Shown here: positions 3,246-7,826 of the stretch, one piece after another | Layout: each line of letters begins with the position of its first letter | How positions within the stretch are numbered: position 1 is the first letter of the stretch | Assembly (NCBI RefSeq): GCF_051903065.1 | Contig: NZ_CP178438.1 | Reading direction: 5' to 3' (one strand) | Length of the DNA stretch: 64,000 nucleotides | Source of the DNA: Escherichia coli | Lineage (GTDB): Bacteria; Pseudomonadota; Gammaproteobacteria; Enterobacterales; Enterobacteriaceae | Made by a program: the position numbers and the translations under genes | Notes under the pieces: model-generated | What the model saw: the letters and a program-made list of their open reading frames with translations, nothing else | The model's database searches: none | What the model was told of the DNA's origin: nothing

Positions 3246-3851
3246 ATGACGCTCTACCAGATAAAACCGCTCTTTCAGTCGCTGTTAAGGCCGACGATGT
3301 TTTGGCTTTATAAGCACCATGTTACAGCGAATCACATCACTCTTGCTGCACTGGCGCTTTCTCTTATTACCGGATTACTGTTGATGTTGGTCGCACAACC
3401 CATCCTCTTTTTGCTATTGCCCATCGTGCTTTTTATCCGTATGGCGCTCAATGCGCTGGATGGCATGTTGGCGCGTGAGTGCAATCAGCAAACACGTCTT
3501 GGGGCGATTTTGAATGAAACTGGCGATGTTATTTCCGATATTGCGCTCTATTTACCGTTTTTATTTTTACCAGAAAGTAACGCATCACTCGTAATACTAA
3601 TGTTATTTTGCACCATATTGACTGAGTTTTGCGGTTTACTCGCGAAGACGATTAACGGTATTCGCAGTTATGCCGGTCCATTCGGCAAAAGCGATCGTGC
3701 GTTAATATTTGGGTTGTGGGGGCTGGCCGTTGCCATTTATCCACAGTGGATGCAATGGAATAATCTTTTATGGGGCATTGCTTCAATTCTGCTTATCTGG
3801 ACTGCGATTAATCGTTGTCGGAGTGTGCTCCTGATGAGTGCTGAAAGATAA
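3246..3851 (+). CDS. ynbA: CDP-alcohol phosphatidyltransferase family membrane protein
   Basis: 201-aa multi-TM ORF from internal ATG; ATGA overlap with next gene. Confidence 0.8.
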   Translation: MTLYQIKPLFQSLLRPTMFWLYKHHVTANHITLAALALSLITGLLLMLVAQPILFLLLPIVLFIRMALNALDGMLARECNQQTRLGAILNETGDVISDIALYLPFLFLPESNASLVILMLFCTILTEFCGLLAKTINGIRSYAGPFGKSDRALIFGLWGLAVAIYPQWMQWNNLLWGIASILLIWTAINRCRSVLLMSAER

Positions 3852-4747
3852 TGCTGGAAAAATCTCTGGCAACACTTTTCGCGTTGTTAATTTTAGCAAC
3901 GCTGATAAACCGTTTTCGGGTATGGCGGTTACCGGAGAGAAAAGAGGATGAAGTTACATTACGTATTCGTACCTGGTGGGGTATCGTCATTTGTTTTTCA
4001 CTGGTGATTTCAGGTCCACGCTGGATGACGTTGACGTTTTTTGCGCTGATAAGTTTTCTGGCATTGAAAGAATATTGTACGCTTATATCCGTACATTTTC
4101 CGCGTTGGTTATATTGGGTTATTCCTCTTAACTATTTGCTTATCGGTTTTAATTGCTTTGAGCTGTTTCTGTTATTTATACCTTTGGCTGGGGTTCTGAT
4201 ATTAACCACCTGGCGAGTTTTAGTAGGTGATACCTCCGGTTTTCTGCATACCGTGAGCGCCATTTTTTGGGGCTGGATAATGACCGTTTTCGCCTTGAGT
4301 CATGCCGCCTGGTTATTAATGTTGCCAACCACAAATACCCAGGGCGGGGCGTTACTGGTGTTATTTATTTTGGCGTTAACAGAGTCAAACGATATTGCAC
4401 AGTATTTATGGGGGAAATCCTGCGGCAGAAGAAAAGTGGTCCCCAAAGTCAGCCCGGGAAAAACGCTGGAAGGTCTGGTGGGGGGCGTAATCACCACCAT
4501 GATTGCGTCACTGATTATTGGGCCGTTGCTGACACCGCTAAATACATTACAGGCATTATTAGCGGGTTTGTTAATTGGTATTAGTGGTTTTTGCGGCGAT
4601 GTAGTGATGTCAGCCATCAAACGAGATATTGGTGTTAAAGATAGCGGAAAACTATTACCAGGACATGGCGGACTCCTTGACAGGATTGACTCATTAATTT
4701 TCACCGCTCCGGTATTTTTTTATTTTATTCGCTACTGCTGTTACTGA
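3851..4747 (+). CDS. ynbB: CdsA-like phosphatidate cytidylyltransferase paralog
   Basis: 298-aa membrane ORF, CTP_transf_1-like C-terminus (KRDIGVKDSGKLLPGHGGLLDRIDS). Confidence 0.8.
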   Translation: MLEKSLATLFALLILATLINRFRVWRLPERKEDEVTLRIRTWWGIVICFSLVISGPRWMTLTFFALISFLALKEYCTLISVHFPRWLYWVIPLNYLLIGFNCFELFLLFIPLAGVLILTTWRVLVGDTSGFLHTVSAIFWGWIMTVFALSHAAWLLMLPTTNTQGGALLVLFILALTESNDIAQYLWGKSCGRRKVVPKVSPGKTLEGLVGGVITTMIASLIIGPLLTPLNTLQALLAGLLIGISGFCGDVVMSAIKRDIGVKDSGKLLPGHGGLLDRIDSLIFTAPVFFYFIRYCCY

Positions 4748-4762
4748 AGGAAAATAGAGAAA

Positions 4763-6520
4763 ATGGAAAATTCACGCATCCCTTGGGAACATTTTTTTAC
4801 CACCAGTGATAATACAGCGTTGTTTTATCGGCACTGGCCCGCTTTACAGCCCGGGGCGAAAAAGGTCATCGTCTTATTTCATCGCGGTCATGAACATTCT
4901 GGTCGTCTACAACATCTCGTTGATGAACTGGCGATGCCAGATACTGCTTTTTATGCATGGGATGCCCGAGGGCATGGAAAAACTTCGGGGCCGCGTGGTT
5001 ATAGCCCATCTCTTGCGCGTTCAGTGCGGGATGTCGATGAATTTGTCCGTTTTGCTGCCAGCGACAGCCAGGTTGGACTGGAAGAGGTGGTAGTGATCGC
5101 GCAAAGCGTCGGCGCAGTGCTGATTGCCACATGGGTTCATGATTATGCGCCTGCAATTCGCGGGCTGGTGCTGGCTTCTCCGGCCTTTAAGGTTAAATTG
5201 TATGTGCCGCTGGCACGTCCTGCGCTGGCGTTATGGCATCGTCTGCGTGGTCTGTTTTTTATTAATTCCTATGTGAAAGGACGCTATTTGACCCACGATC
5301 GGCAACGGGTGGCGAGTTTCAATAATGATCCGCTGATCACAAGGGCGATTGCCGTCAATATCTTGCTAGATCTCTATAAAACGTCTGAACGTATTGTTAG
5401 CGATGCGGCGGCGATTACGCTCCCCACGCAACTTCTGATATCAGGCGATGACTATGTGGTGCATCGCCAACCGCAGATTGATTTTTATCAGAGATTACGT
5501 AACCCTCTGAAAGAGCTGCATCTGCTGCCTGGCTTTTATCACGACACGTTGGGTGAAGAGAACAGGGCGCAGGCATTTGAAAAAATGCAAAGCTTTATTA
5601 GTCGTTTATATGCTAACAAGTCACAAAAATTTGATTATCAGCATGAAGACTGCGCAGGACCATCAGCGGATCGCTGGCGGCTCCTTTCAGGTGGACCCGT
5701 GCCATTATCGCCGGTTGATTTGGCGTATCGCTTTATGCGTAAAGCGATGAAATTGTTCGGGGCGCACTCTGCGGGCCTGCATCTCGGAATGAGCACCGGC
5801 TTTGATTCAGGCAGTTCGCTGGATTATGCCTATCAAAATCAACCGCAAGGTAGTAACGCATTCGGGCGCTTAATCGACAAAATCTACCTGAACAGTGTCG
5901 GCTGGCGCGGTATTCGCCAGCGCAAAACCCATTTACAAATACTGATTAAACAAGCCGTTGCCGATCTCCACGCCAAAGGTTTAGCCGTCCGCGTGGTTGA
6001 CATTGCCGCAGGGCATGGGCGCTATGTACTGGATGCGCTGGCAAACGAGCCTGCCGTAAGCGATATTTTGTTACGTGATTACAGCGAGTTAAATGTTGCA
6101 CAGGGGCAAGAGATGATTGCTCAACGGGGAATGTCTGGGCGGGTGCGTTTTGAACAGGGCGATGCGTTTAACCCAGAGGAACTCAGTGCGTTAACTCCGC
6201 GGCCTACGCTGGCGATTGTCTCTGGCCTGTATGAGCTTTTTCCCGAAAATGAGCAGGTAAAAAACTCACTCGCAGGTCTTGCCAATGCCATCGAACCGGG
6301 CGGCATTCTCCTCTACACCGGGCAGCCGTGGCACCCACAACTGGAGCTGATTGCCGGGGTGTTAACCAGTCATAAAGATGGTAAACCGTGGGTAATGCGC
6401 GTGCGTTCGCAAGGGGAGATGGATTCACTCGTGCGCGATGCCGGATTTGATAAATGCACACAACGGATTGATGAGTGGGGTATTTTTACGGTTTCGATGG
6501 CGGTGCGTCGTGATAACTGA
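4763..6520 (+). CDS. ynbC: Bifunctional alpha/beta-hydrolase / SAM-methyltransferase-like protein
   Basis: 585-aa ORF; GxSxG-like AQSVG in N-half, methyltransferase motif [11 protein letters not shown] in C-half. Confidence 0.8.
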
Positions 6521-6533
6521 ACGTCGGAACGTA

Positions 6534-7826
6534 TTGCTACAAGGCGCTGGCTGGTTATTGTTGCTGGCCCCGTTTTTCTTCTTCACCTATGGATCTCTTA
6601 ATCAGTTCACCGCGGTTCAGGACCTTAACAGCCATGATATCCCCAGTCAGGTATTCGGTTGGGAAACGGCGATCCCTTTTCTTCCCTGGACTATTGTTCC
6701 TTACTGGAGTCTGGATCTTTTATATGGATTTTCGCTGTTCGTTTGTAGCTCGACATTCGAACAGCGCCGACTTGTCCACCGGCTTATTCTGGCAACGGTA
6801 ATGGCCTGCTGCGGTTTTTTTCTCTACCCGCTGAAGTTTAGTTTTATCCGTCCTGAAGTTAGTGGGGTGACAGGATGGCTATTTTCGCAACTTGAACTGT
6901 TTGATCTGCCTTATAACCAGTCTCCTTCGCTGCATATTATTCTCTGCTGGCTACTTTGGCGTCACTTTCGTCAGCATCTGGCTGTGAGGTGGCGTAAAGT
7001 CTGCGGCGGATGGTTTTTACTCATCGCCATTTCGACGCTGACAACCTGGCAGCATCATTTTATTGATGTCATCACAGGGCTGGCGGTAGGTATGTTGATT
7101 GACTGGATGGTACCCGTCGACCGTCGTTGGAATTATCAGAAACCTGATCAACGTCGAATCAAAATAGCACTGCCATATGTCGTAGGCGCGTGCGCGTGCA
7201 TTGTGTTGATGGAGCTAATGATGATGGTTCAGTTATGGTGGTCAGTCTGGTTATGTTGGCCAGTATTATCGCTACTCATTATTGGCCGTGGGTACGGTGG
7301 GCTTGGCGCGATAACAACAGGGAAAGATAGTCAGGGGAAACTCCCGCCCGCCGTTTACTGGCTGACATTGCCCTGGCGTATCGGGATGTGGCTATCTATG
7401 CGTTGGTTTTGTCGTCGCCTGGAGCCGGTGAGCAAAATGACTGCTGGTGTTTATTTAGGGGCGTTTCCACGACATATTCCGGCACAGAATGCGGTTCTGG
7501 ACGTCACCTTTGAATTCCCTCGAGGACGAGAGACAAAAGATCGACTCTATTTCTGTGTACCGATATTGGATCTGGTGGTTCCAGAAGAGGGGGAACTCCG
7601 ACAGGCCGTGGCGATGCTGGAAACATTACGCGAAGAGCAAGGCAGCGTTCTGGTCCATTGTGCATTGGGATTATCGCGCAGTGCGCTGGTGGTGGCGGCA
7701 TGGTTGTTATGTTACGGACACTGTAAAACCGTTAATGAAGCGATTAGCTATATTCGAGCCAGACGCCCGCAGATTGTGCTGACAGACGAACACAAAGCGA
7801 TGCTGAGATTGTGGGAAAACAGGTAA
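6534..7826 (+). CDS. ynbD: Membrane PAP2-like phosphatase fused to dual-specificity protein phosphatase domain
   Basis: ORF 6438-7826 overlaps ynbC; start placed at TTG 6534 (GTG 6510 also possible); PAP2-like SPSLH / [11 protein letters not shown] motifs and PTP signature [10 protein letters not shown]. Confidence 0.65.

Follow-up and report, generated by a model that had tools for sequence, protein, structure and literature searches.

The 64,000-nucleotide stretch of Escherichia coli DNA analysed here (assembly GCF_051903065.1, contig NZ_CP178438.1; hereafter the window) carries ynbABCD, which belongs to those 'y' operons of E. coli that are still uncharacterised and whose products are clearly membrane-lipid enzymes. 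Our preferred, though still tentative, reading is that ynbABCD, a dispensable and normally poorly expressed operon, is the reduced E. coli form of a widespread six-gene cluster, and that this cluster serves an accessory branch of glycerophospholipid metabolism with CDP-diacylglycerol (CDP-DAG) as its starting point. Judging from sequence comparisons, the cluster most likely makes and processes a minor membrane lipid, and an accessory CDP-DAG-dependent pathway fits best because of the gene content, the linkage of the ynbA, ynbC and ynbD homologues (A, C and D below), a natural A-C fusion, and the pairing of the ynbB homologue (B) with an acyltransferase gene (AT). The operon is real; it had been annotated before and has been studied in part, YnbB having been published as a paralogue of CdsA and YnbA, YnbC and YnbD being uncharacterised. 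No published work on the operon as a unit was found in literature searches. What is new here is the six-gene ancestral cluster, the loss of two of its genes in E. coli, a YnbA variant with two Asn residues in its signature, and the two-faced, transferase-like architecture of YnbD. Defining what the operon makes would extend one of the most thoroughly studied lipid maps in biology by a branch and would independently test whether YnbB is dedicated to MPIase, a glycolipid, as a debated claim has it, and both the invariant Asn-Asn site of YnbA and the two-faced YnbD are concrete, testable oddities.

Searching one genome per species with a 9-sequence YnbC alignment yielded 556 relatives, and the best 80 of these 556 loci, from 80 other species and about 36 genera, were analysed. 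Fused hydrolase-methyltransferase homologues make up 406 clusters (50% identity) with E < 1e-30. The taxa of the 80 loci comprise Enterobacterales, Pseudomonas, Burkholderiales, Rhodocyclales, Neisseriales, Bradyrhizobium and one Acidobacteria metagenome-assembled genome. Nearly all of the 80 loci hold A, C and D together, in that order and on one strand. Two further genes complete the cluster, namely AT, a PlsC-type acyltransferase of about 205-215 aa (PF01553, 3.5e-24; NHxSHxD motif) that always adjoins B and whose nearest relatives are the acyltransferase domain of Aas and the acylglycerol-phosphate acyltransferases (AGPATs), i.e., lysophospholipid acyltransferases, and SM, a small membrane protein that belongs to no family, measures about 135-150 aa and lies directly after D in 69 of the 80 loci as counted by flank clustering and jackhmmer. 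The common orders are A-C-D-SM-AT-B and, in Enterobacterales, A-B-AT-C-D-SM; Morganellaceae keep A-C-D-SM, with no AT-B at the locus. One metagenomic protein (P0123, 807 aa; locus L082, 1210-3633) is a natural A-C fusion that is followed by D, AT and B. Clustering of all flanking open reading frames (ORFs) of the 80 loci revealed no other recurrent family, and no head-group synthesis gene, glycosyltransferase or flippase among them. All catalytic residues of the Ynb enzymes are conserved in the alignments. Reverse-strand ORFs of the E. coli region (e.g., 4300-4704 and 3808-3990) were rejected, as they recur elsewhere only as antisense shadows of conserved genes. YnbC homologues or the cluster were also seen on Shinella and Sinorhizobium megaplasmids, and YnbC homologues on Citrobacter and Enterobacter plasmids.

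The corresponding features of the window are as follows.

3077-3245, + strand: ydbD-ynbA intergenic region, which holds the ynbA promoter
3246-3851, + strand: ynbA, 201 aa, CDP-alcohol phosphatidyltransferase
3851-4747, + strand: ynbB, 298 aa, CdsA-like phosphatidate cytidylyltransferase
4748-4762, + strand: ynbB-ynbC spacer of 15 nt, the site at which relatives carry the PlsC-type acyltransferase gene
4763-6520, + strand: ynbC, alpha/beta hydrolase (about nt 4856-5560) and PF12147 S-adenosylmethionine (SAM) methyltransferase (about nt 5585-6508)
6510-7826, + strand: ynbD, membrane domain (about nt 6510-7319) and dual-specificity phosphatase (DSP) domain (about nt 7422-7823)
7836-7865, no strand: perfect hairpin of 11 bp between the convergent genes ynbD and azoR, whose spacer measures 53 nt

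Over positions 3000-8000 the sequence shows 100% identity to E. coli NZ_AP045789.1, in which the genes carry the RefSeq names ynbA-D, and this region is matched in 5417 of the 5426 complete E. coli genomes searched. The four plus-strand genes that an earlier sequence-only reading had placed at 3246-7826 are present as placed and agree with the RefSeq names, and Pfam agrees with the families it proposed for YnbA, YnbB and YnbC (CDP-alcohol phosphatidyltransferase, CdsA-like and hydrolase-methyltransferase), the family matches of all four proteins lying far beyond chance. That reading had also described the genes as contiguous or overlapping. The ynbA/ynbB junction reads ...GAT TAA TG..., which is a 1-nt overlap of the form TAATG and not the ATGA overlap that had been claimed, and ynbB and ynbC stand apart by their 15-nt spacer. 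Whether the ynbD start overlaps the ynbC end, as had likewise been claimed, depends on the choice among three candidate starts, namely GTG 6510 (RefSeq), TTG 6534 (O157:H7 RefSeq) and ATG 6438 (longest ORF): the 11-nt overlap exists only with GTG 6510, a codon conserved in O157:H7 although the RefSeq record there uses TTG, whereas TTG 6534 falls 13 nt past the ynbC stop. The general idea of a self-contained pathway for a CDP-activated lipid was reasonable, though neither new nor complete; comparative genomics strengthens it, but E. coli lacks two of the six conserved genes. A glycolipid product, which had been offered as an option, finds no support in gene content, since no glycosyltransferase or sugar gene is conserved nearby. 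The operon is flanked by ydbD upstream and by the convergent azoR and then hrpA downstream. In the RefSeq record of identical sequence, ydbD (window 941-3076, + strand; DUF2773 'bactofilin') is listed as a pseudogene with a frameshift.

The E. coli locus is syntenic with those of Citrobacter and Phytobacter, in which azoR and hrpA also lie downstream, but it is without AT and SM. In the Citrobacter locus (L002) a 213-aa PF01553 acyltransferase (3.5e-24) lies between B and C, and the blastn alignment of E. coli with this locus ends at the 3' end of ynbB and restarts in the 5' end of ynbC; no AT or SM remnant was detected by tblastn anywhere in the window. On this comparison, the E. coli operon appears to be a reduced copy from which AT and SM were cleanly lost at the syntenic site. 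K-12-type E. coli carry such a truncated version, which may explain the null E. coli knockouts. At least 80% of the region is found in 4274 of the 5426 complete genomes, and 1143 of the 5417 matching genomes (about 21%) have no intact operon. In sequence type 131 (ST131) the whole ydbD-ynbABCD block is absent and pdxI directly adjoins azoR; some strains carry an internal deletion from the 5' end of ynbA into ynbC (e.g., CT02; L093, 1748-3412), and others have an insertion sequence, IS1 or IS2, in ynbB.

It could be argued that the operon is merely a relic in E. coli, i.e., that AT and SM have been lost, transcription is silent, no physiologically relevant product is made, and the MPIase effects of YnbB arise incidentally when a weak CDP-DAG synthase is overproduced. 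The clean gene losses, the strains in which the operon is absent, internally deleted or interrupted, and the frameshifted ydbD next to it are in line with this idea, and so are the need for BglJ-RcsB for expression (PMC3950696) and the lack of a phenotype in published knockouts (PMC6362211, PMC7413402), the ynbC phenotype being strain-specific (PMC2435150). However, about 79% of complete genomes have all four frames intact, none of the catalytic residues has been lost, the specific activator site has been mapped by mutation, and cold induction has been reported. Moreover, the ratio of nonsynonymous to synonymous substitution rates (dN/dS) is 0.1-0.29 in each of the four genes between divergent lineages, with one low-count ynbB comparison as an outlier, and thus purifying selection acts where the operon is present. 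We therefore give the relic explanation only a small chance. Two further variants were also noticed: record P0002 holds YnbB and YnbC as one read-through fusion, the ATG of ynbC lying in frame with the stop of ynbB, and three E. coli genomes possess a second, divergent plasmid copy (~76% identity) with the order A-B-AT-C and a D truncated by IS66 (L097, 5545-9647; NZ_CP027341.1).

YnbA matches PF01066 (CDP-OH_P_transf) with 38.5 bits (gathering cut-off 22; E 1.9e-9). Its nearest NCBIfam models are archaetidylinositol-phosphate (AIP) synthase (2e-20), phosphatidylinositol phosphate (PIP) synthase (1e-12) and PgsA (8e-7), all below cut-off; the equivalog scores are 73.4 bits against a cut-off of 180 for NF040950 (AIP synthase) and 47.9 against 170 for NF045883 (PIP synthase). 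The top PDB match is the mycobacterial PIP synthase 6h53 (4.9e-8). The canonical signature D-x2-D-G-x2-A-R-x8-G-x3-D-x3-D is altered to N69-x2-D72-G-x2-A-R-x8-G86-x3-N90-x3-D94-x3-D98, with Asn at Asp positions 1 and 3. Both N69 and N90 are invariant in 79/79 YnbA sequences, the second and fourth Asp and the G/A/R positions are also kept, and D72, D94, D98, R140, K148, R151 and R190 are invariant across the same 79 sequences. In Mycobacterium tuberculosis PIP synthase, D68, D71 and D89 bind Mg-1, D89 and D93 bind Mg-2, D93 is the presumed base, and R155 and R195 are ligands of the acceptor phosphate, that of inositol phosphate (PMC6506517). These two arginines align with the invariant R151 and R190 of YnbA in the alignment to 6h53, and YnbA resembles the phosphorylated-acceptor branch of the family because these ligands are retained. 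R94, which follows the fourth Asp of the mycobacterial enzyme, is conserved among inositol-phosphate users (PMC6506517), and the equivalent position 95 of YnbA is V/I/L. YnbA therefore cannot be regarded as a PIP synthase, given the score below the equivalog cut-off and the missing R94 equivalent; it appears to act like the phosphorylated-acceptor branch with a systematically altered metal site.

YnbB matches PF01148 (CTP_transf_1; 237 bits, E 3.7e-70) and contains the C-terminal catalytic signature of CdsA, SAIKRDIGVKDSGKLLPGHGGLLDRIDS, which is conserved across orthologues. It scores 110 bits with the CdsA equivalog model, whose cut-off is 385, and is therefore a paralogue and not CdsA. Synthesis of CDP-DAG by YnbB in vitro is described in PMC7018664, citing Sato 2019. 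Overproduction of YnbB raises MPIase, and YnbB has been tied to MPIase and to N-acetylglucosamine (GlcNAc)-PP-DAG (PMC6362211, PMC7018664). YnbB is no substitute for CdsA in bulk phospholipid synthesis (PMC7018664), and YnbB together with Tam41p rescues CdsA depletion (PMC6362211, PMC7018664, PMC11413397, PMC11448367). The gene is non-essential and cold-induced (the same four papers), and its knockout leaves growth and MPIase unaffected (PMC6362211). In the CdsA/MPIase model of the Nishiyama laboratory, YnbB is the CdsA paralogue used, with the full CdsA catalytic signature, and YnbA, YnbC and YnbD play no part.

These reports raise the question of whether the operon serves to build the MPIase anchor, with YnbB making CDP-DAG, YnbA (and not YnbB or CdsA) joining it to GlcNAc-1-phosphate to give GlcNAc-PP-DAG, and YnbC and YnbD tailoring or recycling the anchor. 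Besides the overproduction and rescue results, compound I forms from CDP-DAG and GlcNAc-1-phosphate, and ynbB is cold-induced along with MPIase (PMC6362211, PMC7018664, PMC11413397). The Asp-to-Asn changes of YnbA remove two negative charges and keep the arginines, which would suit a dianionic phosphomonoester nucleophile, and the PAP2 and DSP folds include pyrophosphate cleavers, with LpxE, PgpB, SIW14 and RNA triphosphatases among the structural matches of YnbD. However, MPIase is unchanged in the ynbB knockout, CdsA alone being sufficient (PMC6362211), the published model assigns both steps to CdsA/YnbB and leaves YnbA unneeded, and every MPIase dataset comes from one laboratory. MPIase is reported to be essential, yet the operon is dispensable, ~21% of complete genomes are without an intact copy and ST131 is wholly without it; of the two things expected of an MPIase pathway, namely that gene loss lowers MPIase or that the genes are essential, neither is seen for ynbB or the operon. 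The taxonomic range of the cluster is also wider than that of sugars of the enterobacterial common antigen (ECA) type, the cluster being commonest in Pseudomonas and Burkholderiales, which are not known to make the ECA trisaccharide, and the flanks of the 80 other-species loci show no recurrent glycosyltransferase or sugar-nucleotide gene. On balance, a role of the whole operon in making the MPIase anchor seems improbable.

For YnbD, which the sequence-only reading had called a phosphatase, the DSPc match (PF00782, 2e-27) bears out that description, but it is understated, as the protein has two catalytic domains. The DSP domain shows the family match, the C-x5-R P-loop and the general-acid Asp, and the PAP2_3/PAP2 matches of the membrane domain are weak and below the gathering score. 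When compared with the PAP2 phosphatase motifs C1 (K-x6-R-P), C2 (P-S-G-H) and C3 (S-R-x5-H-x3-D), YnbD has an invariant PSLH and an invariant HH-x2-D (HHFIDV), i.e., C2 plus the His and Asp of C3, with a variable C1 lysine (R/H/K/Q) and the C3 Arg replaced by V/T. In the structure model (pLDDT 92.7), the membrane domain is nearer to SMSr and Aur1 (sequence identity 12-14%) than to LpxE or PgpB. The best structural matches are thus in the transferase branch of the PAP2 superfamily (sphingomyelin synthase (SMS)/SMSr/Aur1), with which YnbD has in common the H...H-x2/3-D triad at the outer face and the absence of a conserved C1 lysine. Enzymes of this branch take the phospho-head group of a glycerophospholipid and pass it to water or to the hydroxyl of a lipid. 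The fused cytoplasmic DSP domain of YnbD is not present in the solved SMSr and Aur1 matches, and no ceramide synthesis is known in E. coli. From the helix positions and the positive-inside rule, the His/His/Asp site is predicted to face the periplasm and the DSP domain to be cytoplasmic. YnbD has been recognised as the fourth member of the PAP2-like set in E. coli, and cells devoid of the whole set are viable (PMC7413402).

This architecture would also allow a pathway of a kind that has not been described, in which the Asn-Asn YnbA builds an anionic lipid on the cytoplasmic side, the tethered DSP domain trims it, the lipid flips, the domain resembling SMS and inositol phosphorylceramide (IPC) synthase transfers the phospho-head group to an envelope acceptor, and the lipase-methyltransferase tailors the donor. 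We consider such a head-group-donor pathway a long shot. Within it, the lipid could be pyrophosphate-linked if the acceptor phosphate is the nucleophile, and YnbA would then be the missing committed enzyme for GlcNAc-PP-DAG-type anchors.

YnbC combines Hydrolase_4 (PF12146, 1e-67) with Methyltransf_20 (PF12147; 502 bits, 5.6e-151). Its N-terminal domain has the monoacylglycerol lipase fold with a Ser-Asp-His triad and is a close structural match to monoacylglycerol lipases (Rv0183 and human MGLL), and in its methyltransferase the SAM motif D413-x-A-A-G-x-G and D439 are invariant. No characterised PF12147 member was found in our searches, literature included. The pairing of an esterase with a SAM methyltransferase recalls the methyl-ester logic of BioC/BioH; unlike both the monoacylglycerol lipases and BioC/BioH, however, the YnbC hydrolase is fused to a PF12147 methyltransferase, a fusion without a characterised member. 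A mariner insertion in ynbC, possibly polar on ynbD, led to polyphosphate accumulation in one strain background, an effect that the Keio strain did not show (PMC2435150). Remote paralogues of YnbC (32-33% identity; L083/L084, 3649-9779, and L091, 3733-9749) sit in another conserved cluster, in which genes for an acyl carrier protein (ACP), a ketoacyl synthase (KAS), a MaoC dehydratase, a short-chain dehydrogenase/reductase-type ketoreductase and a PF10118 protein precede the gene for the fused hydrolase-methyltransferase; the arrangement resembles a pathway for acyl chains, so far uncharacterised, that uses the same fusion module. In a separate locus (L090, 2528-3660), a small unannotated ORF comes after a distant YnbC homologue, and next to it lies a membrane methyltransferase of the PEMT/ICMT family.

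Considering these relatives of YnbC, the cluster might serve lipid remodelling or turnover, YnbC deacylating a lipid, AT reacylating it with a special chain, the methyltransferase modifying the acyl chain or esterifying a carboxyl group, and YnbB, YnbA and YnbD re-routing the resulting phosphatidate or diacylglycerol. In addition to the structural closeness of the YnbC hydrolase domain to monoacylglycerol lipases, AT is nearest to the Aas domain, which reacylates lysophospholipids, and to AGPATs, and the acyl chain is the only substrate type shared with the ACP-KAS-dehydratase-ketoreductase clusters of the distant paralogues. SMSr-like enzymes, for their part, can act as phospholipases C and yield diacylglycerol. 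However, the invariant partnership of a phosphatidyltransferase with a phosphatase and the order A-C-D are hallmarks of head-group synthesis, the paralogues share no more than 32-33% identity and may have other functions, and E. coli retains C but has lost AT. Remodelling is thus unlikely to be the main role of the cluster, though it deserves some weight.

For the accessory CDP-DAG branch that we prefer, the following order of reactions may be proposed. YnbB would form a private CDP-DAG pool from phosphatidate and CTP, an activity that has been published for it, and in relatives the adjacent AT would supply the phosphatidate. YnbA, acting at the cytoplasmic face, would then use CDP-DAG to place a phosphatidyl group on an anionic acceptor that probably carries a phosphate, with release of CMP, as suggested by its place in the PIP/AIP/phosphatidylglycerol phosphate (PGP)-synthase branch, its two phosphate-binding arginines and the ever-present phosphatase. 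The cytoplasmic DSP domain of YnbD would strip that phosphate, in the way PTPMT1 acts on PGP. Because the membrane domain of YnbD resembles sphingomyelin/IPC synthases more than lipid phosphatases, its periplasm-facing site might donate the phospho-head group of the lipid to some acceptor or cleave it in a phospholipase C-like manner to diacylglycerol. Finally, YnbC, probably held beside YnbA, might remove an acyl ester and methylate, which is the weakest step of the proposal; with AT it would form a deacylation/reacylation tailoring loop. The YnbB step is the only one with experimental support. Since AT and SM are lost in E. coli, either housekeeping enzymes would be needed there or the product would be truncated. 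The same reaction order is known from CdsA-fed pairs of a PIP, AIP or PGP synthase with a phosphatase (PgsA1 and PIP phosphatase; PgsA and PgpA/B/C; Pgs1 and PTPMT1), and the likeness extends to the top sequence and structure matches of YnbA, its acceptor-phosphate arginines, and the PTPMT1 fold of the C-terminal domain of YnbD. However, YnbA differs from these synthases in its Asn residues at signature positions 1 and 3, its lack of the Arg specific for inositol phosphate and its scores far below the equivalog cut-offs, and four elements of the ynb-type cluster have no counterpart in PIP/PGP-type pathways, namely the hydrolase-methyltransferase, the SMS/Aur1-like domain, the acyltransferase and the small membrane protein.

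Several observations weigh against this proposal. Two of the four Mg-binding Asp residues are absent in YnbA, which may therefore use a different chemistry or nucleophile, and the missing PIP synthase R94 equivalent removes a residue typical of inositol-phosphate users. Overexpressed YnbD complements neither undecaprenyl pyrophosphate (C55-PP)- nor PGP-phosphatase deficiency (PMC7413402), a published negative result that led us to reject YnbD as a PGP or C55-PP phosphatase, sets it apart from the PGP route, and thus disfavours PGP, the simplest substrate. The DSP fold is also not lipid-specific, as ordinary protein dual-specificity phosphatases score as high as PTPMT1. The ACP/KAS/dehydratase/reductase context of the distant YnbC paralogues points to acyl-chain rather than head-group chemistry. 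Given that AT and SM are absent and that ~21% of genomes are without an intact operon, the pathway may be incomplete in E. coli. In the literature, no product has been detected and no lipid phenotype has been reported for any ynb mutant.

With respect to expression, a good Shine-Dalgarno sequence (AAGGA) lies 8 nt ahead of the ynbA ATG. According to PMC3950696, a BglJ-RcsB site has its centre 65-68 bp ahead of the point where ynbA transcription starts, and activation is abolished when the site is mutated; the same paper and bioRxiv 10.1101/2025.05.08.652849 place ynbA, ynbC and ynbD as co-regulated members of the BglJ/RcsB regulon. The GC content is 0.43-0.45 in the ynbA promoter region and ynbA-ynbB (3001-5000) versus 0.48-0.53 in ynbC-ynbD (5001-8000), and the AT-rich ynbA-ynbB half would be compatible with silencing of the promoter-proximal part. 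Promoter-like and terminator-like sites within the operon are not enriched over shuffles, and no Rfam family has a match in the region. The hairpin downstream of ynbD folds at -24.2 kcal/mol on the plus strand and -24.3 on the minus strand (z = -4.4 and -5.3 versus shuffles) and probably acts as a bidirectional terminator closing the unit; a consensus scan called no terminator there because the hairpin lacks a T-run. In relatives, the SM gene occupies the interval between D and azoR in which E. coli has this hairpin.

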